From assembly GCA_038209555.1 (NCBI GenBank), contig JBBQXP010000001.1:68728-132727 (forward strand): 64,000 nucleotides of DNA, given 5' to 3'. Shown here piece by piece: positions 1-55,985 of this stretch (position 1 is the stretch's first letter; every line of letters starts with the position of its first letter). Below the pieces are notes generated by a model. It was not told the DNA's origin. It searched no databases and saw only the letters and a list, made by a program, of their open reading frames with translations. The DNA is from Gaiellales bacterium. GTDB lineage: Bacteria > Actinomycetota > Thermoleophilia > Gaiellales > Gaiellaceae. The position numbers were made by a program, and so were the translations under genes.

Positions 1-995
1 TCCCTCTGGAGGGAACGGCGCTCGCGGAGGTGTGCAGGACGGGCCAGACGGTCGTCCGCGAGGACATGGCAGAGCCACCACGCTTCAACGAGGACTCTGA
101 GCTCGTGGACTTCGGCTTGCGGTCGCGCGTCGCGGCCCCGCTCCCAGCCGGGAACCGAGTCCTCGGGATGCTGTCCGTGTCCCGCCGGACGCCGAGCTCG
201 TTCTCGGCGGACGACGTGAGTCTGATCACCTTGCTTGGCCGGCAGGTCGCGACGGCTGTGGAGAACATCCTGTCGTTCGAGGCCGAGCGAAATGCCGCCG
301 AGGAGCTCAGGCGCCTCTCCGCGCTTCGGGCCGACTTTGTCTCGCTCGTTTCGCACGAGCTTCGCGGGCCCATGGCGTCGGTAATCGGCTGCGCCGCGAC
401 GCTGCGAAGCCGGTGGCGCGTTCTCCGTCCTCAGCAACGCGAGTCGTTTCTCGCCCTGATCGAGGACGAGACGTCGCGCCTCGCCGCGCTGATCGGCGAT
501 GTCCTCGACACCTCACGCATGGACGCCGGGACCTTCAGCTACTCGTTCGCCCCGGTGGACGTCGAGCAGCTCGTCCGCGAGGCTGTGGCGATGATGCAGC
601 TCGGGCAGGAGGACGTCCAGGTGCGCGCAAAGGTCGTCTCTCCGCTGCCTGCCGTTCGGGGCGACCGCGAGCGGCTCCACCAGGTGCTGCTGAACCTGCT
701 CGGGAACGCCCTCAAGTACACGGTCGGGGGAGACGAGGTCGAAGTGCGTGCCGCCGCCTCGAAAGGCCGGATCGAGATCGCGGTCACCGACCACGGACCT
801 GGAATCGCACCGGCCGACCAGCGGATGATCTTCGAGAAGTTCGGTCGTGCGAAGCCCTCCGGCTCGACCCCCGGCGCGGGACTGGGGCTCTTCATCGCCC
901 GGTCCATCGTCGAGGCCCACGACGGCTCGCTCGAGGTCGAATCGACCCCAGGAGCCGGAGCGACGTTCACTGTGGCGCTGCCTCTCGGGACCTAG
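1..995 (+). CDS. sensor histidine kinase, 5'-truncated by window edge (GAF C-terminus + HisKA + HATPase_c)
   Basis: ORF 30..995 stays open in frame back to nt 3. H-box SHELRGP, N-box LLGNALKYT, G-boxes DHGPGI and GAGLGL. Confidence 0.9.
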   Translation, partial: PLEGTALAEVCRTGQTVVREDMAEPPRFNEDSELVDFGLRSRVAAPLPAGNRVLGMLSVSRRTPSSFSADDVSLITLLGRQVATAVENILSFEAERNAAEELRRLSALRADFVSLVSHELRGPMASVIGCAATLRSRWRVLRPQQRESFLALIEDETSRLAALIGDVLDTSRMDAGTFSYSFAPVDVEQLVREAVAMMQLGQEDVQVRAKVVSPLPAVRGDRERLHQVLLNLLGNALKYTVGGDEVEVRAAASKGRIEIAVTDHGPGIAPADQRMIFEKFGRAKPSGSTPGAGLGLFIARSIVEAHDGSLEVESTPGAGATFTVALPLGT

Positions 996-2998
996 CGGTG
1001 CTGCGGCGACTTCCCGAGTGCGACAGCGAGTGCTTTCGCCCTGCCGGCGACTTCTTGGCGCAGATCGGGTGGCTCGAGCACCACGGCCTCGCCGCCGTGC
1101 GACAGGATCTCGCCGACGAGCCAGTCGGCGCTCCCGACCTGGAGCGCCTCCAGCGCGCTGCCATCCGCAAGGGGGCTAGCACCCCGCTCGAGGCGCCACC
1201 GGGCGACCGTCGGTGAAAAGAGAACTCGAGCCGTCCTGGCCTCCTCGAGACCGCGAGGTGCGACGCCGGGGCGGGGTTTGAACCCCGCCCGCTGCTTCTT
1301 CGCGCTGCGCATGCGATCGAGCCGGAAGCTCCGGACTGCGTCTCGTGTCGTATCCCACGTATCCACGTACCAGTGGGGAAGCTCGCGGCGAAAGCGGTAA
1401 GGCTCTACGGTTCTCGGGCTCGCGGTCGTCTCGCCGACCTTCAGGTACTCGATCTCGACGAGCCGGTGCTCGGAGATCGCGTCTGAGAGCGTTCGGATCA
1501 GCTTCTCCTCGTCGGTCGCGGCAGCCGCCGGCTCGGCGGCCTCGTCCAGTTCGAACTGCCCGAAGGTCTCCTCGAGCTTCCGGCGGACGCGGTCGAGCCC
1601 GGTGTGAGCCTCCGCCGCGATCATGGGGCCAACGAACTCGAGAGCCAGCCGAATGGCGCGAGCCTCGAGCGGGGTCAGCCTGGGGGGCCGCCTGAAGGTG
1701 TCACCGAACAGCTCCTTCTCGACGTGAACCGAGTCACCCTCGATCGACGCATAGAGGGCGTAGCAGCCGCCTCCGAAGTTGACGAGGTTCAGGAGCTGGA
1801 GGTGCTCGTCGAGATGCTCGACCGGAATCCGGAACCGCTCCGCAAGCTCGGCGGCGGGGATGTCGGCGGACGCATCCTCGCCGCAGCTGGCAAGGAGATG
1901 CGCCAGGAGCGCCTGCAGGAGCCCGAAGCGCTCGGGCGCCACCGGGCCGGCAGTGCGCTCGATGACCTCCCCGGCTTCCCGGGTTGCCTCCACCCTGGCA
2001 GGCTCGGGAGGCGGACCCTCATGAGCGGCGACTACGCGCTCGACGGATCGCTCGACGAGCTCGACGAGCTCGGGTGGCTCCAGCGGACGCGCTCGCCCCT
2101 CCTGGTTCAGGACCCAGGAGGCGAGCCTGCCGAGGCCCGAGTACTGCGTCACGAACACGCCCTCGTCGACGTGTCCTCGGTCCGCGAAGGCGCGCTCGAC
2201 GAGCCAGGCCAGATCCTCGGCCAGCTCGATCCGCGCCTCGCCCGTGATCTCACCGACCTGCCAGGCCGGGCGGCCTCGGTAGATGGAGGCGTCGAACTCC
2301 TCCGGGACACGAAAATCACGCTCGCGGCGCGTTGCGAACCGGATGTCGCCGCGGACGCGGGAGACACGGAAGGTTCGCTCCTCCTCGCGGTCGTGATCCC
2401 ATCCGACCATGTACCAGGAGCCGGCGTCCGTGAAGAGTGCGTACGGGTTGATCGTCCGCTCCGACTCCTCGTCGCGCTGCATCGAGAGATAGCGGAACTT
2501 CACGGTCCGGCCCTTCGAGATCGCGCCCTCGAGCTTGGTGAGCCGTCCCGACATCTCCTCCGAGTAGTCCGGATCGTGGACCTGCACGGCCGACTCCCGG
2601 CTCGACTCGAGTGGCGCCGGCCGGCCGAGCGCTAGATTCTGGAGCGCGAGCCTAAGTGGCTCGGCGTAAGCGAAGCGGCCGTCGAGGAGATGGAACGCCG
2701 TCTGGAGCGCCGCAAGCTCGTCGTCCTCGAGATCGAGAGCGGGGAGGAAGTACTGCTCGGAGCGCAGCGTGTAGAGCTCCTCGCCGGTGAACTCGTCGCG
2801 CTGGGAATGAAGTGGGACGCCGAGTGCGATCAGCTCGCTTCGGTCGGAGTAGAAGCGCCGTGCAAAAGCCTCGTCGGACATCTCCGAGTATCCCTCGACA
2901 TTTGTCTTGACGTCCCGCGCGGTGATAGGCCGACGCTCCGCCATGAGGTAGGCGACGAGCGAAAGCTGCCGGATGAGCTTGTCGGTGTCGTGCGACAC
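992..2998 (-). CDS. pafBC: fused PafB/PafC-like HTH-WYL transcriptional regulator (two tandem HTH-WYL modules)
   Basis: ORF 992..3025 (677 aa). N-terminal HTH LIRQLSLVAYLMAERRPITARDV. WYL-type cores GSWYMVGWDHDREEERTFRVSRV and PHWYVDTWDTTRDAVRSFRLDRM. Start ambiguous: ATG 3025 would overlap dinB head-on, so in-frame GTG 2998 is preferred. Confidence 0.8.
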   Translation of the reverse strand: MSHDTDKLIRQLSLVAYLMAERRPITARDVKTNVEGYSEMSDEAFARRFYSDRSELIALGVPLHSQRDEFTGEELYTLRSEQYFLPALDLEDDELAALQTAFHLLDGRFAYAEPLRLALQNLALGRPAPLESSRESAVQVHDPDYSEEMSGRLTKLEGAISKGRTVKFRYLSMQRDEESERTINPYALFTDAGSWYMVGWDHDREEERTFRVSRVRGDIRFATRRERDFRVPEEFDASIYRGRPAWQVGEITGEARIELAEDLAWLVERAFADRGHVDEGVFVTQYSGLGRLASWVLNQEGRARPLEPPELVELVERSVERVVAAHEGPPPEPARVEATREAGEVIERTAGPVAPERFGLLQALLAHLLASCGEDASADIPAAELAERFRIPVEHLDEHLQLLNLVNFGGGCYALYASIEGDSVHVEKELFGDTFRRPPRLTPLEARAIRLALEFVGPMIAAEAHTGLDRVRRKLEETFGQFELDEAAEPAAAATDEEKLIRTLSDAISEHRLVEIEYLKVGETTASPRTVEPYRFRRELPHWYVDTWDTTRDAVRSFRLDRMRSAKKQRAGFKPRPGVAPRGLEEARTARVLFSPTVARWRLERGASPLADGSALEALQVGSADWLVGEILSHGGEAVVLEPPDLRQEVAGRAKALAVALGKSPQHR

Positions 2999-3017
2999 GG
3001 GTCCTAGTATTGAGGAC

Positions 3018-4091
3018 GTGCGCACCTCCCCGCAGCCGATCCTCGCCCATCTTGACCTGGACGCCTTCTTCGCCGCCGTGGAAGAGCTCGAGCACCCGGA
3101 GTTGGTCGGTAGACCTCTGATCGTGGGCGGCGACCCGCGCGGGCGTGGGGTCGTCGCGACCGCGAACTACGAGGCACGGCGGTACGGAATCGGATCCGCG
3201 ATGTCGAGCGCGGAAGCGCTTCGCCGTTGTCCGGAAGCCGTTTTCGTGCCTCCGAGCAAGGACCTCTACTCCCGCTACTCCCGCAGAGTCTGGGCGGCGG
3301 TACGGGAGGTCGTCCCGACCGTGGAGCGAACCGGCCTCGACGAGGGCTATCTCGATGTCGGAGAGGTGGCTCGCGGCTTCGGCGAGGCCCGCGCGGTGGC
3401 CGAGGCCGTGCAGGCAGCGGTCCGTGCCGCCGTTGGTCTCTCCTGCTCACTTGGCGTCGCGCCCTGCAAGGTGGTCGCGAAGGTCGCGAGCGACCGCCGG
3501 AAGCCTGGCGGAATCACGATCGTGCGGCCCGGCCGGGAAGCGGCGTTCCTGGCCCCCTTCGACCTGAGGCGCCTCCCCGGCGTCGGCCCGCGGGCCGACG
3601 AGCGCCTCCGTGCCGCGGGGCTCAGGATGATCGGCGACTTCGCGGCTCTCGACGACGAGCACCTCCGCCGGCTCCTACCCGGCAAGGTCGGTCAGGTCTT
3701 ACGGGATCGAGCGCGGGGCATCGACCTTCGCGGACTCGAGTTCGCGACCGAGAGCGTCTCGATCGGCCACGAGGAGACCTTCGCCCGGGACGTGTCCGAT
3801 CGGGAGCAGCTGCACGACGAGCTCCGGCGGATGTCCGCTCGCGTCGCCGAGCGGCTGCTCGAGACCGGGCACGCAGCCCGCACCGTCACGACGAAGGTCC
3901 GCTACCCGGACTTCTCGATCCGCAGCAGGTCGACGACGCTGGAAGCCGGGACGGACGACGGCACGAGGATCGGTGAGATTGCCTGCAACCTCCTGGACCG
4001 GGCGCTCAGTGACCGTCCCGGAGCCTTACGCCTCGTCGGCGTGAGCGTCGCGAACCTCGACGCGTACCGGCAGCTGGCTCTCGACCACTAA
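3018..4091 (+). CDS. dinB: DNA polymerase IV (Y-family)
   Basis: ILAHLDLDAFFAAVEELE, LDEGYLDV and SLGVAPCKVVAKVASDRRKPGG match DinB family motifs. ORF opens at ATG 2973, but GTG 3018 fits the family N-terminus and avoids 5' overlap with pafBC. Confidence 0.9.
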   Translation: MRTSPQPILAHLDLDAFFAAVEELEHPELVGRPLIVGGDPRGRGVVATANYEARRYGIGSAMSSAEALRRCPEAVFVPPSKDLYSRYSRRVWAAVREVVPTVERTGLDEGYLDVGEVARGFGEARAVAEAVQAAVRAAVGLSCSLGVAPCKVVAKVASDRRKPGGITIVRPGREAAFLAPFDLRRLPGVGPRADERLRAAGLRMIGDFAALDDEHLRRLLPGKVGQVLRDRARGIDLRGLEFATESVSIGHEETFARDVSDREQLHDELRRMSARVAERLLETGHAARTVTTKVRYPDFSIRSRSTTLEAGTDDGTRIGEIACNLLDRALSDRPGALRLVGVSVANLDAYRQLALDH

Positions 4092-4800: not shown

Positions 4801-5553
4801 CTACGGACTGACCTCGCGGACGTACGCAAGCGGGAATCCCCGGGAGCGCGCAGTGGCAAGACCGCTCTGGGCCGCGGCGACGGTGTCGTACACACCCGTG
4901 AACACGACGTAGTACCCGGGGTTCAATGTCAGGAAGTCGGATGAGTTCAGGATCCCGACGTTTGTAAGCCCGTTGGCGATCGCCTGGTTCGCCTTCCGCT
5001 CGGCGGCGGCGCGGCCCTTAGATGTCTCGACCGAGGCCAGTACGATTGTGTAGCCCTCCCTGCCCTGCGGCCAGGAGCGGATGTTCCCCGACTGGGTCGT
5101 CGTGACCGTCGTAGCCGTCGTCAGCGTGGAGGTGTCGAGCGTTGCGATCGTCTGCGTGGTCGGGCTCGTGATGGTCTCGATCGACGCGGTCGGGCCGTTG
5201 GTCTGGATTCCCGGGAGGGCTCCCACGGTGGCAGTCGTTCCGGGCCCGCGAGACACGAGTCGTCCCTTCTCATCGTCCTTGGTAGCGGCCACCGCCGCGA
5301 TCGCGCCGGCGACCAGCGCGACGAGAAAAAGCGCGAGGAGAGCCGCCCAGAGCCAGGCAGGGGAATCCCGCGACCACATCTCGGTCCGCATGAACGCGAC
5401 AGGGATCTGGGCGCCCGGCAGGCGCGCGCCGCACTCGAGACAATACTCTTGGTAGAGGTCGTGCGGCGCTCCGCAGCGCGGGCACGCAGGCGTTTCGGGC
5501 GGAGGCTCACTTGGAGCGCCGGGATCTGGTGGAAGGGGCGGCCGTGAGACCAC
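4801..5553 (-). CDS. zinc-ribbon / TM / SPOR-domain protein
   Basis: CPRCGAPHDLYQEYCLECG zinc ribbon, TM segment WLWAALLALFLVALVAGAIAAV, Thr-rich linker, SPOR-like C-terminus (YTIVLASV...GYYVVFTGVY). Start set at GTG 5553 (TAGTG overlap with upstream stop), not the ORF-track ATG 5784. Confidence 0.8.
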   Translation of the reverse strand: MVSRPPLPPDPGAPSEPPPETPACPRCGAPHDLYQEYCLECGARLPGAQIPVAFMRTEMWSRDSPAWLWAALLALFLVALVAGAIAAVAATKDDEKGRLVSRGPGTTATVGALPGIQTNGPTASIETITSPTTQTIATLDTSTLTTATTVTTTQSGNIRSWPQGREGYTIVLASVETSKGRAAAERKANQAIANGLTNVGILNSSDFLTLNPGYYVVFTGVYDTVAAAQSGLATARSRGFPLAYVREVSP

Positions 5554-6128
5554 TAGTCCTCGTTCGGCTCCTTGGCCCGCGGAGCTACGAGCGTCTGGTC
5601 CGCGCGCTCCTCCGTGTCGCCGAATTCGTCCGCCGCGACCGAGTTCCCGCAGGTGGAGCAGAAGTTCGCCTCGGCGGGGAGCGGATTTCCGCAGTGACCG
5701 CAGGCGACAACCGGCGCCGTCTCGGCTGCCGGTCGGCCGCAGTGGGCACAGAAGTGCGCTCCGCGGACGAGCGGGGCCCCGCACTTGCAGGGCGTCGCTA
5801 CTCGCATGCCCCGAGGAACGGCTTCGCTTGCCGCCAGGAACGCATCGAGCTCGTGGATGCGCCGCTCGAGCGCGAGCACCTCGGAGGCGCGGCTGACCAG
5901 CAATTCGGGCTTGAAGCGGTCGCGGCGCACCATCTCGACTGCCAACCCGCCGACGTCCCGCATCTCGATCTCGCGGCGGCGCGCCAGCGACCGGCGCTCG
6001 CGGAGCGCTGCCGCAGCCGTCAGCGGCGGCGCAGGATCGGGCGGTGGCATCTTCTCGCTCCCGTCGACCGCGAGTTCGGGCGGAGCAGGCGGCCTGCGAG
6101 CGAAGAGCGAGAAGCGACGGGCCGTCAT
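5553..6128 (-). CDS. double zinc-ribbon domain protein
   Basis: CKCGAPLVRGAHFCAHCG and CGHCGNPLPAEANFCSTCG repeats after a coiled-coil-like N-terminus. Translationally coupled to the SPOR gene. Confidence 0.75.
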   Translation of the reverse strand: MTARRFSLFARRPPAPPELAVDGSEKMPPPDPAPPLTAAAALRERRSLARRREIEMRDVGGLAVEMVRRDRFKPELLVSRASEVLALERRIHELDAFLAASEAVPRGMRVATPCKCGAPLVRGAHFCAHCGRPAAETAPVVACGHCGNPLPAEANFCSTCGNSVAADEFGDTEERADQTLVAPRAKEPNED

Positions 6129-19979: not shown

Positions 19980-20376
19980 GCCCGAGGAGGGGTCGGTAAA
20001 GGACCTCTTCGAAAAGACGCTCCTCGCAGCCCTCGGCGCCGTGGTGCTCACGAAGGAGCGAGCCGACGATCTCGCGGAGGAGCTGACGAAACGCGGCCGC
20101 ATGACCGGCGAGGAAGCGCGCGAGGTCGTCGACGAGCTCACGCATAGGTGGCGGGGAGACGCCATGCGCTTCAGCGAGCGCGCCGGCTCGACGATCTCCA
20201 GCCTTTCCCGTGAGCTCGGGCTTGTCACGCGGCGCGAGTGGGAGGAGCTCGAGCTGCGGCTGGCCCAGGTCGAGCACCGCCTCAGGCTCCTCGAGGGCCA
20301 GCCCGCGTCCGCTCGCGGGGCGAGGCCGGCGAAACCCGCACCCGGGCCGTCAAACCTCCCGCCAGAGCCCAGATGA
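19963..20376 (+). CDS. phasin-like protein (PHA synthesis regulator phasin family)
   Basis: ATG 19963 overlaps the secDF end. LFEKTLLAALGAVVLTKERADDLAEELTKRG and LGLVTRREWEELELRLAQVEHRL resemble COG3937-type phasins. Confidence 0.7.
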   Translation: MAAPGEPEEGSVKDLFEKTLLAALGAVVLTKERADDLAEELTKRGRMTGEEAREVVDELTHRWRGDAMRFSERAGSTISSLSRELGLVTRREWEELELRLAQVEHRLRLLEGQPASARGARPAKPAPGPSNLPPEPR

Positions 20377-20430
20377 TCTGCTTGGTCTGACCCGTCTCCG
20401 CGGGTACGCCAATTACCGAGCAATCATCTA
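20371..20430 (+). repeat. internally deleted 60-nt derivative of the palindromic intercistronic repeat (copy D)
   Basis: AGATGAT...CTTGGTCTGACCCGTC (exact 16-mer shared with copy B)...CGCCAATTACCGAGCAATCATCTA. The upstream TGA stop (20374-20376) lies inside its left terminus. Confidence 0.75.
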
Positions 20431-46579: not shown

Positions 46580-46605
46580 CGCACCAAGTACCAATCAACC
46601 ATCTA
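46580..46605 (+). repeat. solo right-end fragment of the palindromic intercistronic repeat (copy E)
   Basis: CGCACCAAGTACCAATCAACCATCTA versus copy B CACGCCAATTACCGATCAACCATCTA, with an exact 12-mer ATCAACCATCTA. Lies 12 nt upstream of the gcvT GTG. Confidence 0.55.
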
Positions 46606-46617
46606 GGATCCGCCGCG

Positions 46618-47649
46618 GTGCAGACGGCACGCCGAACGCCCCTCTACGAGCGCCACACGGCGCTCGGCGCGCGCATCGTGGACTTCGCAGGCTGGGAGAT
46701 GCCGGTGCAGTACACGGGCATCCAGGAGGAGCACCGCGCGGTTCGGACGTCCGCGGGCGTCTTCGACGTCTCGCACATGGGCCAGCTCGAGCTGTCCGGC
46801 GCCGGAGCCCACGACTACCTCCAAGCACGGCTCTCCAACGATCTCGACCGGATCGGCGACGGGCGGGCCCAGTACACGCTCCTGACCAATGACCGGGGCG
46901 GGATCACGGACGACCTCATCGCGTATAGGCGCGGCGACGACGACTACCTGCTCGTCGTGAACGCATCGAATGTCGAGCCGGATCACGCGGCACTCCCTGA
47001 CACGACCGACGTCTCCGATCGTTATGCCCTTCTGGCCGTCCAGGGGCCCGAGGCGCTCGAGCGGCTCGGGCTCCAGCTGGAGCCGTTCACCTTCCGGGAG
47101 GACGACGTGCTTGGCGTCCGGTGCCTGGTCGCAGGGACCGGCTACACGGGTGAACGCGGCTGCGAGCTGGGCTGTGATCCCGACGACGCCGTCCGGCTCT
47201 GGGACGCGATCCTTGCGTGCGGAGTCGTCCCTTGCGGTCTCGGCGCCCGCGACACGCTACGCCTCGAGGCCTGTTACCCGCTTCACGGAAACGACATCTC
47301 ACCGGAGCGAACGCCGATCGAGGCGGGACTCGGCTGGGCGTGCGCGCTCGAGAAGGAGTTCACCGGTGTCGACGTGCTCAGGCGTCAGAAAGAAGAGGGC
47401 ACGGCCGAGCGCCTGGCCGCCTTCGTGCTGGAGGACAAGGGCATCCCCCGGCAGGGGATGAAGGTCATCGAGCCACCCGGTGAGGTCACCTCCGGCTCCC
47501 TCTCCCCGATGCTCGGCATCGGGATCGGGCTTGCCTACGTGCCGACCGGGTTCGCCGAGCCCGGAACGACGATCAGCGTCGACCTCCGCGGACGACTGCG
47601 AAAGGGGCATATCGTGAAGAAGCCGATCTACAAGCGAGAGGGGACGTAA
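46618..47649 (+). CDS. gcvT: glycine cleavage system aminomethyltransferase T
   Basis: [42 protein letters not shown]. Confidence 0.93.
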
Positions 47650-47651
47650 GG

Positions 47652-48044
47652 GTGGCAGCCGCAGAGAGCTATCCCGAAGGGCTGAAGTACCACCCCGAGC
47701 ACGACTGGGCGAAGGTGGACGGCGACACGGCGACCATCGGGATCACCTGGTACGCCCAGGACGCGCTCGGCGAGATCGTGCACTTCGAGCCCCCGGAACA
47801 GGGAAGCTCCGTCGCCAAGGACGAGAGCTACGGAGAGGTCGAGTCGGTGAAGGCCGTATCCGACCTCGTCTCGCCGCTCTCCGGCGAGGTGACCGAGGTA
47901 AACCAGGCAGTCGTAGACGAGCCCGAGACGATCAACGAGGAGCCCTACGGGGATGGCTGGCTCATCAAGGTGCGGCTCTCGGATCCCTCGGAGGTCGATG
48001 GGCTTCTCGACGTCGCTGCCTACAAGGAACTGCTCACAGAGTAG
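47652..48044 (+). CDS. gcvH: glycine cleavage system protein H
   Basis: HDWAKVDGDTATIGIT and lipoyl-lysine motif ESVKAVSD. Confidence 0.93.
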   Translation: MAAAESYPEGLKYHPEHDWAKVDGDTATIGITWYAQDALGEIVHFEPPEQGSSVAKDESYGEVESVKAVSDLVSPLSGEVTEVNQAVVDEPETINEEPYGDGWLIKVRLSDPSEVDGLLDVAAYKELLTE

Positions 48045-48208
48045 ATGGCCGATCGACAATTACCGCACCCACGGATGGCGGCCCAGACACGGCGCCAGGC
48101 CGCACCCTCGCCCTTGGCAAGGCTTCTAGCCTTGCCCGCGGACGATGGCACCCCCTGGCTTGGTCTGGCCCGTCCCCGCGGGCACGCCAATAACCGATCG
48201 TCCATCTA
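48042..48208 (+). repeat. palindromic intercistronic repeat, full copy A (167 nt)
   Basis: Aligns end to end with 51040-51206 and with the reverse complement of 55825-55985. Begins with the gcvH stop TAG and ends 1 nt before the gcvPA GTG. Confidence 0.9.
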
Positions 48209-49543
48209 GTGAGCTACCTCTCCCTCACGGACGCCGACCGCGAGGCGATGCTCGAAGCGATCGGCGTCTCGTCCGTGGACGAGCTCTTCCGAGACATCCC
48301 GAAGAGCCTGCGCCTCGACCGTCCCCTCGCCCTGGAGCCGGCCCTTTCGGAGCAGGAGCTCGTCGAGCACCTCTCCGAGCTAGCGGCGAAGAACGTGTCC
48401 GTCTCGGAGGAGCTCTCGTTCCTCGGGGCTGGGATGTACGACCACTACGTTCCCGCGGTGGTCGACGCGATGCTCGCGCGCGGCGAGTTCCTGACAGCCT
48501 ACACGCCCTACCAGCCGGAGATGAGTCAGGGCGTCCTGCAGGCCATCTTCGAGTACCAGACAGTGATCTGCGAGCTGACCGGCATGGACGTCTCGAACGC
48601 ATCCGGCTACGACGGAACGACCGTTGCCGCCGACGCCTGCTACGTCGCCAAGTACGTCACCGGGCGGACCAAGGTCGTCCTCGCCGAGACGTTGAATCCG
48701 CAGACCCGGCAGGTCGTGAAGACGTATGCACCGGGGTTCGGGCTCGACGTCGTGGAGGTGCCGCATCGCGACGGCGTCGTTGACCCGGACGAGCTCCGGC
48801 GCGCCGCGGAGAATGCCGCGTGCGTCATCTTCCAGCAACCCAACTTCTTCGGCTGCCTCGAGCCGGCTCCCGATCTGGCTGCGGCGGCCAACGACGCCGA
48901 GGCGCTCGCGGTCGCCCATGTCGATCCGCTCTCCTTGGGTGTTCTGGAGGCACCGGGTGCCTATGGGTGCGCGATCGCGATCGGCGAGGGCCAGGGTGCC
49001 GGGAACTACCTCTCCTACGGCGGCCCGCATTACGGCTTCTTCGCAGCCCGGAAGGACTTCATCCGCCGGATGCCAGGCCGGATCATCGGTGAGACGACCG
49101 ACCTGGACGGCGAGCGTGGATTCGTCCTGACGCTACAAACGCGCGAGCAACACATCCGTCGCGAGAAGGCGACCCACAACATGACCACGAACCAGACGCT
49201 TCTCGCCCTGGCCGGCCTGATCTATCTGAGCTGGCTGGGTCCGCAGGGGCTCAGGGAGGTGGGCGAGACCTGCATGGGTCTCGGGGCCTACGCGAAGGAG
49301 CAACTCGGGCTCCAACCGGTGTTTCCAGATCAGACAACGTTCAAGGAGTTTGCCGTCCGCGTCGGACGGAGCGGCCAGGACGCGATCCGCGCCGCCCGCG
49401 AGCGCGGCGTCCATCCGGGATATGCGCTTGGCCGCGACTACCAGGGCTTGGACGATGCCCTGCTCGTCTGCGTGACAGAGAAGCGGACGCCGGCGGACAT
49501 CGACCGTTTGGCCGCCGTCTTGCAGGAGGTCGCGGCGGCGTGA
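48209..49543 (+). CDS. gcvPA: glycine dehydrogenase (decarboxylating) subunit 1
   Basis: N-terminus SYLSLTDADREAMLEAIGVSSVDELFRDIP matches the GcvPA start. Split P-protein arrangement. Confidence 0.92.
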   Translation: MSYLSLTDADREAMLEAIGVSSVDELFRDIPKSLRLDRPLALEPALSEQELVEHLSELAAKNVSVSEELSFLGAGMYDHYVPAVVDAMLARGEFLTAYTPYQPEMSQGVLQAIFEYQTVICELTGMDVSNASGYDGTTVAADACYVAKYVTGRTKVVLAETLNPQTRQVVKTYAPGFGLDVVEVPHRDGVVDPDELRRAAENAACVIFQQPNFFGCLEPAPDLAAAANDAEALAVAHVDPLSLGVLEAPGAYGCAIAIGEGQGAGNYLSYGGPHYGFFAARKDFIRRMPGRIIGETTDLDGERGFVLTLQTREQHIRREKATHNMTTNQTLLALAGLIYLSWLGPQGLREVGETCMGLGAYAKEQLGLQPVFPDQTTFKEFAVRVGRSGQDAIRAARERGVHPGYALGRDYQGLDDALLVCVTEKRTPADIDRLAAVLQEVAAA

Positions 49544-51039
49544 AGCTGATCTTCGAGAAGTCGCAATCTGGGCGCCGCGCCTCGCGCGTGCCGCGTTCCG
49601 ACCTGCCCAAGGTCGACATCCCGGAAGGGCTCCGGCGCGAGCGGCTTCCGCGGCTGCCCGAACTCGCCGAGCCCGAGGTCGTCAGGCACTTCACGGCGCT
49701 CGCCGATCGGACCTTCGGCGTTGACACGGGGTTCTACCCGCTCGGCTCGTGCACGATGAAGCACAACCCGCGGGTGAACGAGCGCCTCGTCATGCTGCCG
49801 GGCTTCCGCGATCTGCACCCACACCAGGAGGAGGAGGGATCGCAGGGCGCGCTCGAGCTGATGTGGCGGCTGCAGCAGATCCTCGCAGAGGTGGCGGGGC
49901 TCGACGCGGTCTCGCTCCAGCCTGCAGCCGGTTCACAGGGAGAGCTCACCGGGCTCATGCTCATGCGGGCCTACTTCGCCGACCGAGGCCAGGGCGAGCA
50001 GCGGACGACCGTGATCACCGCGGACACGGCCCACGGCACGAACCCTGCGAGCGTGACGATGTCGGGCTACCAGCTCAAGAAGGTCGAGACGGACGAGCGT
50101 GGGAACCTCGACCTCGATGACCTCCGCGCCAAGGTCGATGAAAGCACGGCCGGACTCATGCTCACGAATCCCTCGACGCTCGGCCTCTTCGACGAGCACA
50201 TCGAGGAGGTCGCGGAGATCTTCCACGATGCTGGAGCGCTCCTGTATTACGACGGCGCGAACCTGAACGCGGTCTGCGGCATCTCGCGCCCCGGTGATAT
50301 GGGCTTCGACATCATCCACTACAACCTCCACAAGACCTTCTCGCAACCGCATGGCGGGGGCGGGCCCGGCGGTGGGCCGGTGGCCGTGCGGGAGATTCTC
50401 GAGCCCTTCCTGCCCGCGCCGACGATCGTCCAGGAGGGCGATGCGTTCCGGCTCGACTACGACCGACCGAAGTCGATCGGCAAGGTCCGCGGCTTCTGCG
50501 GGCCGTTCGGCGTCTTCGTACGCTCCTACGCGTTTATCCGCGCGTACGGGCCGGGGCTCCGAGCCATGTCCGAGGCTGCCGTCCTGAACGCGAACTACAT
50601 GCTGGCAGGCCTCAGGGAGGTCTACGAGCTTCCGTTCGACCGGCTCTGCATGCACGAGTTCGTGCTCTCGGCACGCGGCCTGAAGCGGGAGCACGGCGTT
50701 AGCGCCCTCGATGTGGCCAAGCGGCTCATGGACTACGGATTCCACCCGCCGACGGTCTACTTTCCGCTGATCGTGCCCGAGGCACTCATGATCGAGCCGA
50801 CGGAGACGGAGGCGAAGGAGACGCTGGACGACTTCGTCGAGGCCATGCGGTCGATCGCCCGGGAGGCCGCCGAGGACCCCGGCTTGGTGAAGGACGCGCC
50901 CCATAGCCGGCCCGTTCGCCGGCTCGATGAGGTCAAGGCCGCGAAGCGCGCGATCGTCAAGTATGGGTTCGAGGAGCACCCAGACCTGTCCGGTCGGCCC
51001 GCCGCGGGTGAGGCGCTCGAGGCACAGAAGGGCGCTTAG
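49540..51039 (+). CDS. gcvPB: glycine dehydrogenase (decarboxylating) subunit 2
   Basis: LGSCTMKHNP and PLP-lysine region NLHKTFSQPHGGGGPG. GTGA overlap with gcvPA. Confidence 0.92.
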   Translation: MKLIFEKSQSGRRASRVPRSDLPKVDIPEGLRRERLPRLPELAEPEVVRHFTALADRTFGVDTGFYPLGSCTMKHNPRVNERLVMLPGFRDLHPHQEEEGSQGALELMWRLQQILAEVAGLDAVSLQPAAGSQGELTGLMLMRAYFADRGQGEQRTTVITADTAHGTNPASVTMSGYQLKKVETDERGNLDLDDLRAKVDESTAGLMLTNPSTLGLFDEHIEEVAEIFHDAGALLYYDGANLNAVCGISRPGDMGFDIIHYNLHKTFSQPHGGGGPGGGPVAVREILEPFLPAPTIVQEGDAFRLDYDRPKSIGKVRGFCGPFGVFVRSYAFIRAYGPGLRAMSEAAVLNANYMLAGLREVYELPFDRLCMHEFVLSARGLKREHGVSALDVAKRLMDYGFHPPTVYFPLIVPEALMIEPTETEAKETLDDFVEAMRSIAREAAEDPGLVKDAPHSRPVRRLDEVKAAKRAIVKYGFEEHPDLSGRPAAGEALEAQKGA

Positions 51040-51206
51040 TAGATGGTTGATCGGTAATTGCCGCACCCCCGGATGGCGGCCCAGACACGGCGCCAGGCCG
51101 CACCCTCGCCCTTGTCAAGGCTTCTAGCCTTGCCTGCGGACGATGGCGCACCCTGGCTTGGTCTGACCCGTCCCCGAGGTCACGCCAATTACCGATCAAC
51201 CATCTA
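51040..51206 (+). repeat. palindromic intercistronic repeat, full copy B (167 nt, perfect 21-nt termini)
   Basis: TAGATGGTTGATCGGTAATTG...CAATTACCGATCAACCATCTA. Central hairpin CAAGGCT-TCT-AGCCTTG. Starts right after the gcvPB TAG and ends 2 nt before the next GTG. Confidence 0.92.
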
Positions 51207-55568: not shown

Positions 55569-55823
55569 CTACTCGCGGATCTCGAGCGTCCGAACCCCTC
55601 CAAGGTCGATCCATGTGCGACCGGGTGCGCGCACGATGCGAAAAAGGACGCTCGAGCACGTCCGGCAGCGGACAACTGTTCCAGGCGCACGCAGGTAGAC
55701 CACTACTTCGGCGATGGGACCGATCGCCCCGCACGCTCTGCATACCACCGTCGAGACGGTCATCTCGATGCCAAAGATCTCGAGAAGCTCGCCTCCGATC
55801 GCGTTTCCGTCCAGGTCAATCAT
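55569..55823 (-). CDS. small CxxC...CxxC protein resembling the DUF6510 family
   Basis: MIDLDGNAIGGELLEIFG...CRACGA...YLRAPGTVVRCRTC. Last gene of the Moco/FAD oxidoreductase operon. Confidence 0.75.
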   Translation of the reverse strand: MIDLDGNAIGGELLEIFGIEMTVSTVVCRACGAIGPIAEVVVYLRAPGTVVRCRTCSSVLFRIVRAPGRTWIDLGGVRTLEIRE

Positions 55824-55824
55824 C

Positions 55825-55985
55825 TAGATGGTTGGTCGGTAATTGGCGTGCCCGCGGGGGCGGGCCAGACCAAGCCAGGGTGTGCCATCGCCCGTAGGCA
55901 AGGCTAGAAGCCTTGACAAGGGTGAGGGTGGGCGCCGTGTCTGGGCCGCCATCCGAGGGTGTGGTAATTGTCGATCAAACATCTA
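55825..55985 (-). repeat. palindromic intercistronic repeat, full copy C (161 nt, minus-strand orientation)
   Basis: The reverse complement aligns with copies A and B with one 6-nt deletion. Its first 3 nt are the stop TAG (55985-55983) of the upstream minus-strand gene. It ends 1 nt before the ATG at 55823. Confidence 0.9.

Follow-up and report, generated by a model that had tools for sequence, protein, structure and literature searches.

The junction between gcvH and gcvPA in a contig of a Gaiellales bacterium (GenBank assembly GCA_038209555.1, contig JBBQXP010000001.1) is filled exactly, from stop codon to start codon, by a 167-nt repeat that we call copy A. On its sequence, copy A appears to be a member of a previously undescribed 167-bp family of MITEs (miniature inverted-repeat transposable elements) of Gaiellaceae (Thermoleophilia, Actinomycetota). 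Throughout, the window is the whole stretch that was analysed, i.e. the 64,000 nucleotides from position 68,728 to position 132,727 of this contig, and coordinates are counted from its first letter. We consider it very likely that the repeat is a MITE and that it inserted at a TA. The best overall explanation, which we regard as probable, is that this MITE entered a TAGTG overlap between a stop and a start codon, where it would relay ribosomes from gcvH to gcvPA. The functional relay, taken by itself, is a tentative proposal to which we give nearly even weight.

The gcvH-gcvPA junction and the repeat family

Copy A lies on the forward strand (48042..48208; 167 nt with its flanking TAs at 48042-43 and 48207-08). 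Sequence matching places its left terminal inverted repeat (TIR), GATGGCCGATCGACAATTACC, at 48044..48064 and its right one, GCCAATAACCGATCGTCCATC, at 48186..48206, both on the forward strand. The upstream gene, gcvH (47652..48044, forward strand; PF01597, GCV_H), ends with a TAG (48042-44) composed of the duplicated target TA and the first base of the element, a G. The downstream gene, gcvPA (glycine dehydrogenase subunit 1; 48209..49543, forward strand), opens with a GTG at 48209-48211. The 3' end of the element, ...CCATCTA, has its last A at 48208, with zero bases left before this start codon, and the junction reads gagTAGATGGCCGATCGACAATTACC...CCGATCGTCCATCTA followed directly by GTGagc. 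The original prediction had described this stop-to-start fit, and re-reading of the sequence and of the open reading frames (ORFs) confirmed every coordinate of it. The start call of gcvPA, which draws on the ORF, on Pfam and on the N-termini of relatives, is solid: residue 2 aligns to position 2 of the Pfam GDC-P profile, and about 60 metagenomic relatives use the homologous start codon, with the N-terminus V/M-S-Y/F-L-S-L-T-D-x-D-R-x-x-M-L. The absence of a Shine-Dalgarno (SD) sequence between the element and the GTG was also borne out, as there are no intervening bases and a GGAGG-like or purine-rich, SD-like run was looked for in the last 20 nt of copy A (AATAACCGATCGTCCATCTA) without any being found. 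A promoter and terminator scan of positions 47600-48400 gave zero terminator-like and zero promoter-like sites in or near copy A. Finally, taking out copy A together with one TA yields gagTAGTGagc, as had been claimed.

The repeat is real and not a chance resemblance: a 21-nt terminus pattern matches the window 6 times, for 0.00 expected, and relatives carry copies as well. The window holds three full copies (A, B and C) and two remnants (D and E), copies B and C being 85-92% identical to copy A. A TIR of about 21 nt (TAGATGGTTGATCGGTAATTG) is found at both ends and reaches the element termini; in the family it follows the pattern GATGGTTGATCG(G/A)CAATTACC, with the G at position 3 and the C at position -3 invariant at 78 of 78 loci. 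Full copies fold as a single whole-length hairpin (-64 to -94 kcal/mol, z -4.7 to -9.5), the RNA hairpin of copy A reaching -86.6 kcal/mol (z -5.96). The 167-nt element has no transposase gene, and its sole ORF, of 54 codons, has no Pfam match.

A strand-neutral pattern scan for the family, in which each GTDB species was represented by one genome, gave 77 loci, all of them in Gaiellaceae, "uncultured Actinomycetes" or Thermoleophilia metagenome-assembled genomes (MAGs). With an nhmmer profile, eight Gaiellaceae/Thermoleophilia MAGs yielded 84 full copies, which occupy 78 distinct loci. Their mean identity to the 167-nt consensus is 93.8%, and the profile makes the orientation of the copies unambiguous (about 180 bits forward vs. 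about 45 bits reverse). Over the whole window, Rfam gave zero matches at the gathering threshold, and blastn of copy B against the PLSDB plasmids gave no match.

Copy B (51040..51206, forward strand) directly follows the stop of gcvPB and is separated by 2 nt from the downstream GTG (51209), the start of a Ser_hydrolase gene; its TIRs are perfect and its frame 1 is shut by a TAA at element position 16. Copy C (55825..55985, reverse strand) measures 161 nt and has an in-frame 6-nt deletion. Copy D (20370..20430, forward strand) is internally deleted, a left-end stub (AGATGATCT) being joined to the last 51 nt, and copy E (46581..46605, forward strand) is a right-TIR remnant (CCAAGTACCAATCAACCATCTA) located 12 nt upstream of the gcvT start. 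This gcvT (aminomethyltransferase; 46618..47649, forward strand) is the first gene of the gcv cluster and was identified as an ORF with Pfam GCV_T/GCV_T_C (PF01571) on the identical protein. Downstream, gcvPB (glycine dehydrogenase subunit 2; 49540..51039, forward strand) overlaps gcvPA by GTGA and stops at a TAG (51037-39). With remnant E, copy A and copy B, the gcvT-H-PA-PB cluster has therefore received three insertions of the same family.

Insertion at TA and stop codons as targets

The family duplicates TA on insertion and prefers C-TA-G. The duplication is established because the same sites were found filled and empty. For this purpose, both flanks of each copy were joined and then sought in all sequence at hand, which gave about 9 filled/empty orthologous pairs, two of them clean at base resolution. 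In the first, locus L035 reads ...gagcgTA[167 nt]TAgtggtctc and the empty site of the window reads ...gacTAGTGGTCTC. In the second, locus L071 is filled by a full element and reads ...ggcgttTA[167 nt]TAgcggcgctg, the window being empty at a CTAG (992..995, assigned to neither strand) and reading ...gggaccTAGCGGTGCTG. The two empty sites of the window carry a single TA, at 5554-5555 and 993-994, respectively. A third pair (L056 vs. L051) has the empty site CTCTAGG, and in three other comparisons (L068 vs. L030, L078 vs. L004 and L004 vs. L078) the junctions are too diverged for the duplication to be read. The site filled in L035 is the native TAGTG (5551..5555, minus strand) to which the original prediction had compared the gcvH-gcvPA junction; it does exist, its stop TAG (5555-5553) overlapping a GTG (5553-5551). 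A TA-duplicating insertion into an overlapping stop/start, as initially proposed, is thus supported by the L035 and L071 pairs and by the gcvH-gcvPA junctions of metagenomic relatives.

Among the 78 loci, 33 have TA/TA flanks and most of the others have at least one TA. The base before the left TA is a C in 32 of 54 cases and the base after the right TA is a G in 35 of 47, for a background of about 34% each. A duplicated TA together with a preference for CTAG is the hallmark of IS630/Tc1-mariner transposition. A duplication of 3-4 bp (TAG, CTAG, or TNA as in IS5-type elements) was rejected: G3 and C-3 are invariant bases of the element, and the end triplets are inverted, not direct. In addition, the flanks are TA at the left end and TG at the right end in 14 cases, nearly all of them with ATG next (CCATCTGATG), which can be read as an A>G change on the right side. 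This change is about 10 times more frequent than the element-wide divergence of about 6% predicts, and the excess suggests either that a TGATG overlap was selected for or that TAGATG lost one nucleotide.

Several of these sites show what may follow insertion. In L071, the ortholog of 5551-5555 and of L035:2543 (at about 1590-1650) holds a 54-nt remnant left by a TIR-to-TIR deletion (TAGAGATGGTTCATCGACAGTTACCGCAC joined to GCCAACCACCGACCAACCATCTA). The same site is thus known in three states, i.e. full in L035, reduced to 54 nt in L071 and empty in the window, and the remnant shows decay in place. A similar remnant, of 80 nt, lies at L032:987-1067. The CTAG at 992-995 is the stop of two convergent ORFs (30..995, plus strand, and 992..3025, minus strand), and with the element inserted at this position in L071 (6195-6361) each of the convergent genes keeps a TAG. 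For L004:1987-2153 against L078:1106-1510, the "empty" side reads CTTTGATGCGATGAGG, which has no TA and contains a TGATG resembling the element end; either a footprint of excision or mere divergence could account for this.

We then looked at the gcvH-gcvPA junction of relatives, in 80 metagenomic loci whose GcvH shares 65-79% amino acid identity with that of the window. Of the 69 readable junctions, 43 have the GTG, TTG or ATG of gcvPA overlapping the TGA of gcvH by 4 nt (caGTGAgc). The two closest relatives (L082 and L123) read cagTAGcGTG, and L143 reads TAGtcGTG. Because relatives read in this way, the ancestral junction appears to have been one of overlapping or abutting stop and start, and the flanks of the element rejoin precisely. 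The common gagCAGTGAGC and the reconstructed gagTAGTGAGC are one C>T apart. Such a change would drop the terminal Gln of GcvH, and the GcvH of the window does end in ...LLTE, vs. ...EQ. No copy was found with nhmmer when the element was searched against these 80 gcvH relatives, the orthologous filled site being present only in near-identical contigs.

The history of the junction could then be as follows. In this lineage, the gcvH/gcvPA overlap (ancestrally caGTGAgc) would have turned into TAGTG, and the element would then have inserted into its TA. The expected empty allele would read ...GAGTAGTGAGC..., with a single TA. On the left, TA and the G of the element would rebuild the gcvH stop; on the right, TA and the G of GTG would form a TAG overlapping the intact gcvPA start. 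Both proteins would be unaltered, except that GcvH would be one residue shorter. More generally, insertion into a TAG or TAA stop regenerates a TAG for a gene on either strand, because the element starts with G and ends with C.

Three relatives carry a different and unrelated insert of 133-151 nt at the same gcvH-gcvPA junction (L093:1896-2029, L116:1890-2041 and L155:1899-2035). Its flanks are a duplicated (C)GTGAGC, i.e. the ancestral stop/start overlap, and it ends in a stem-loop whose loop includes AGAGG or GGAGG at about 8 nt before the gcvPA start. Judging from these features, it seems to be a second element family, in which the same problem would be solved by bringing an SD.

In the window, TA stands at 46% and CTAG at 28% of the compositional expectation. 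Of the 783 TA dinucleotides, 538 lie inside ORFs, where an insertion would be lethal, and 9 of the 30 CTAGs outside crude ORFs are gene stops. Much of the exact fill is target choice combined with purifying selection, because TA is rare and the tolerated targets are often stops. In the family, the stop of a flanking gene is built on the terminal TA in 33 of 78 copies; where the upstream gene is in one of the other two frames, it ends with a TGA at position 2 (in the deletion variant) or with a TGA at positions 9-11. By crude gene calls, stop usage in the window (33 TAG, 27 TGA and 9 TAA) is unusually rich in TAG for 67% GC, and this would widen the pool of targets open to the element.

A frame open from stop to start

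Copy A bears a 54-codon ORF (48045..48209, forward strand, from the ORF listing), which is the proposed relay ORF and a feature additional to the original prediction. Its ATG abuts the gcvH TAG (TAGATG), and the TAG that closes it (48207-09) shares 1 nt with the gcvPA GTG (TAGTG). The left end of the element reads TAG-ATG, and the length of 167 nt puts the ATG at position 4 into the same frame as the terminal TA (166-167). The ATG at position 4 is present in 74 of 78 copies, frame 1 (from ATG4 to TA166) is open in 73 and the length modulo 3 equals 2 in 72. The mirror frame of the reverse strand is open in 10 of 78 copies and closed in the other 68 by a TAA at position 16. Copy C makes a second perfect relay in the window: the gene for an FAD/NAD-binding reductase stops at a TAG (55985-83), the relay ORF runs from 55982 to 55824 and the ATG of a DUF6510 gene follows at 55823. 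Both junctions are TAG-ATG, and the 6-nt deletion of this copy keeps the frame.

Where the element lies between co-directional genes, it is co-oriented with them at 33 loci and reversed at 4 (binomial p = 1.1e-6), the flanking coding frames having been called by heuristics based on GC at the third codon position, with some errors (L035, for example, was mis-classed). A complete relay, i.e. one with both junction gaps between -4 and +6 nt, was found at 18 of the 33 co-oriented loci, and the relay stop overlaps the downstream start by one base (-1) at 13 co-oriented loci. With a strand-neutral scan and a palindromic target, this co-orientation points to selection after insertion. In the reverse orientation, the frame meets a TAA at codon 5 and the RNA hairpin is much stronger; operon junctions hold almost no elements placed in this way. 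Furthermore, 3 of 78 copies have a stop in frame 1, vs. 9.9 ± 2.8 (site-weighted) or 19.3 ± 3.8 (uniform) when drift away from the consensus is simulated; as the copies share descent, this comparison overstates independence and significance. An open frame of the reverse strand shows no such depletion (12 vs. 12.8 simulated).

The relay peptide belongs to no Pfam family. Its consensus, searched against 5.8 billion proteins, gave 3 matches, with no family and no informative fusions, and a real small protein was rejected on these grounds. The peptide itself is probably irrelevant; the act of translation, and not its product, would matter. At one pair of orthologous filled sites (L055:2137-2303 and L065:1413-1579), the upstream TAG of L065 corresponds to GAG in L055. 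In L055, the ORF upstream of the element continues across its full length in frame 1, up to a TGA that overlaps the next ATG; the element would here have been recruited as a C-terminal extension.

Termination-reinitiation coupling requires overlaps or very short distances (PMC10666635). In the relay that we propose, gcvPA, which has no SD, would ancestrally have been translated by termination-reinitiation. The element would offer an ATG that immediately follows the regenerated TAG, and a frame of 54 codons without interruption as far as the terminal TAG. On ending gcvH, a ribosome would resume without delay, unfold the hairpin as it translates across it, stop on the GTG of gcvPA and begin once more. 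One gap of 167 nt would in this way be converted into two zero-distance couplings. We hold such a functional relay, keeping translational coupling, to be about evenly poised, at best.

Besides the heuristic frame calls and the shared descent mentioned above, several observations weigh against insertion at TA followed by relay. The flanks are other than TA/TA at 45 of 78 loci, many of which might be read as indels of 1-2 nt with the stop codon kept (cTAGATGG to cTGATGG; TAGAGATGG). The putative assignment to IS630/Tc1-mariner draws on the target duplication and the target, and a fuzzy TIR search for an autonomous insertion sequence in about 0.5 Mb (8-kb neighbourhoods of MITE copies) found no TIR-bounded unit of 1-1.5 kb; the fetched loci yielded remnants only (80 nt in L032, 54 nt in L071 and a solitary TIR in L045). 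The original prediction expected relatives to show an empty TAGTG-like site between gcvH and gcvPA. The overlapping stop and start proved common, at one base from TAGTG, but the exact TAGTG was found in none of the readable relatives. An empty allele from the same species, sought by exact GcvH protein look-up, was not found among the three contigs with identical GcvH: L003 contains the element, and L001 and L002 end inside it, 126 and 36 nt past the gcvH stop. In addition, open frames are partly expected at 67% GC, forward frame 3 being open in 71 of 78 copies and also somewhat depleted in stops, and in copy B, in the same operon, frame 1 is closed and the downstream gene still follows after 2 nt. 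Finally, the 33:4 orientation bias can equally be explained by the stronger hairpin of the reverse transcript: over the 78 loci, the mean minimum free energy is -83.7 kcal/mol forward vs. -113.4 kcal/mol reverse, i.e. about 30 kcal/mol stronger when reversed.

Two alternatives bear on the relay. The MITE might be passive, its fit being a by-product of TA/CTAG targeting where TA is rare and of the loss of gene-breaking insertions, with an incidental ORF and a gcvPA translated independently, e.g. by SD-independent initiation. Such initiation is common in Actinomycetota. The depletion of TA and CTAG (46% and 28% of expectation) fits this account, tolerated targets being often stops (9 of 30 non-ORF CTAGs), and insertion into the TA of a stop automatically gives TAG followed by ATG and a terminal TA(G). 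The persistence of copy B despite its closed frame, a peptide that belongs to no protein family and the frequency of open frames at 67% GC (frame 3 open in 71 of 78) also speak for it. However, a passive element predicts neither the 33:4 co-orientation at operon junctions, the CTAG/TA target being palindromic, nor a stop depletion specific to the forward strand. It does not account for the single-base changes by which stop/start overlaps are repeatedly preserved (cTGATGG, CCATCTGATG), and the terminal TA is the stop of a flanking gene in 33 of 78 copies, vs. 16-30% of non-ORF TA/CTAG sites. We consider it rather unlikely. Selection could also have acted on RNA structure, the orientation bias and the tolerance in operons coming from hairpin strength and not from the ORF. 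The forward fold would be read through, or would be a benign hairpin that stabilises or processes the mRNA, and the reverse hairpin would block ribosomes or attract RNase III and be purged. The difference in mean free energy between forward and reverse transcripts (-83.7 vs. -113.4 kcal/mol) speaks for this account, and the Correia/NEMIS and ERIC MITEs act via RNase III/E, with orientation-dependent mRNA stability (PMC2229807). Structure alone nevertheless leaves unexplained how an SD-less gcvPA is initiated right after a hairpin of -87 kcal/mol, as well as the depletion of forward-strand stops and the conservation of ATG4 (74 of 78). As the sole cause it is doubtful, a little more so than a passive MITE; it is compatible with the relay and does not exclude it.

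Two other alternatives concern the nature of the element and are far less probable. A cis-regulatory RNA dedicated to gcv expression, be it an attenuator, a riboswitch or a terminator, or else a true gene for a small protein, would agree with a strongly structured sequence with an intact 54-codon ORF inside a metabolic operon. We judge it very improbable, as the same sequence occurs at 78 unrelated loci in every gene context, with no Rfam family in the window, no terminator-like or promoter-like site at 47600-48400, and, for the peptide, no Pfam match and matches to 3 of 5.8 billion proteins. A REP/REPIN-type element mobilised by a RAYT (an IS200/IS605-like Y1 transposase), or a palindrome-associated element derived from IS200/IS605, would share the long hairpin, the extragenic location and the high copy number. 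These families make no duplication, and the TA duplication demonstrated here rules them out. The true TIRs reaching the very ends, the lack of a conserved GTAG head and halves that are not themselves REP palindromes also argue against this origin, which we hardly credit at all.

Known systems and significance

TA-duplicating bacterial MITEs, such as Correia/NEMIS of Neisseria, ERIC/IRU of enterobacteria and RUP of S. pneumoniae, have been reviewed (PMC2229807, Table 1). Like the MITEs derived from IS630/Tc1-mariner, the present element measures 100-200 bp, has TIRs and 5'-TA-3' at both ends, and duplicates TA (PMC2229807). It also shares with TA MITEs a transcript folding as one long stem-loop and a mostly intergenic location with co-transcription with neighbours, and some TA MITEs have contiguous ORFs (PMC2229807). 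Unlike known TA MITEs, it gave no sequence match to anything annotated (Rfam, plasmids), and its host is a high-GC, uncultured actinobacterial family. Its TA+G and C+TA termini, which regenerate TAG on either strand, its ATG at position 4, which opens a frame running exactly to the terminal TA, and its strong co-orientation in operons set it apart as well. IS630 itself prefers a CTAG target, as this element does. The insertion mechanism is thus ordinary and the kind, a TA-duplicating bacterial MITE, is well known; the family is new. A paper on CTAG in Halobacterium deals with methylation, not with MITEs.

MIRUs (mycobacterial interspersed repetitive units) are a parallel in function. They are units of 40-100 bp, often in tandem arrays (variable number tandem repeats), and are not known to have long TIRs, a whole-length hairpin or TA duplication. 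They are read as inserting with minimal effect on expression, through -4 coupling (Supply et al. 1997, via the review PMC12548453). As in MIRUs, the internal ORF overlaps or abuts its co-oriented neighbours, by its start at the stop of the one and by its stop at the start of the other (copies A and C; 18 of 33 junctions), the host belongs to the Actinomycetota and the element is co-oriented with the flanking genes. In contrast to MIRUs, single 167-nt units with TIRs and TA duplication make a classical MITE of the cut-and-paste type, and the element junctions are TAG-ATG (0 nt) and TAGTG or TGATG (-1) where MIRUs have -4. By analogy, the element would be MIRU-like in its working, and it is not a member of the MIRU family.

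Other known systems share part of this behaviour. The Rickettsia palindromic elements (RPE) and YPAL/RU-2 of Yersinia are also palindromic and MITE-like, with a contiguous frame that can be translated with host genes (PMC2229807), as at L055. RPE and YPAL are noted for fusing in frame into proteins, whereas this element is mostly a separate mini-cistron with its own stop and start. In engineered bicistronic designs and leader-ORF delivery, a short upstream ORF ending on the start codon of the target likewise delivers ribosomes and removes the influence of local structure (PMC12548453). Those are designed constructs or single natural leaders; here the arrangement is borne by a transposon and has spread to dozens of junctions.

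The filled and empty sites show a transposon inside a tightly coupled operon junction that harms neither gene: the target TA lies in the stop codon, and the terminal bases of the element restore that stop. This MITE family also breaks up Gaiellaceae MAGs assembled from short reads, as two of three contigs that share the identical gcvH end within the element, and it yields spurious or missed small ORFs; its recognition improves the annotation of an abundant uncultured soil lineage. It is possible, although we hold this a little less firmly than the relay at copy A, that the element is an "operon-safe" transposon, whose termini (TA, then G-ATG, on the left and C, then TA, on the right) and 54-codon frame have been selected for landing in the stop of any gene, including reinitiation-dependent overlaps, and for passing ribosomes on through its own hairpin. 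If the relay is functional, it would be a natural and widely copied counterpart of the bicistronic-design trick of synthetic biology, and would join MIRUs as the second, independent example of mobile repeats keeping translational coupling. The element would then be a mobile, self-installing translational coupler, mechanistically parallel to MIRUs and carried by a TA-duplicating MITE, and this would explain how MITEs colonise gene-dense, high-GC genomes in which stop codons are the only tolerated TA sites.

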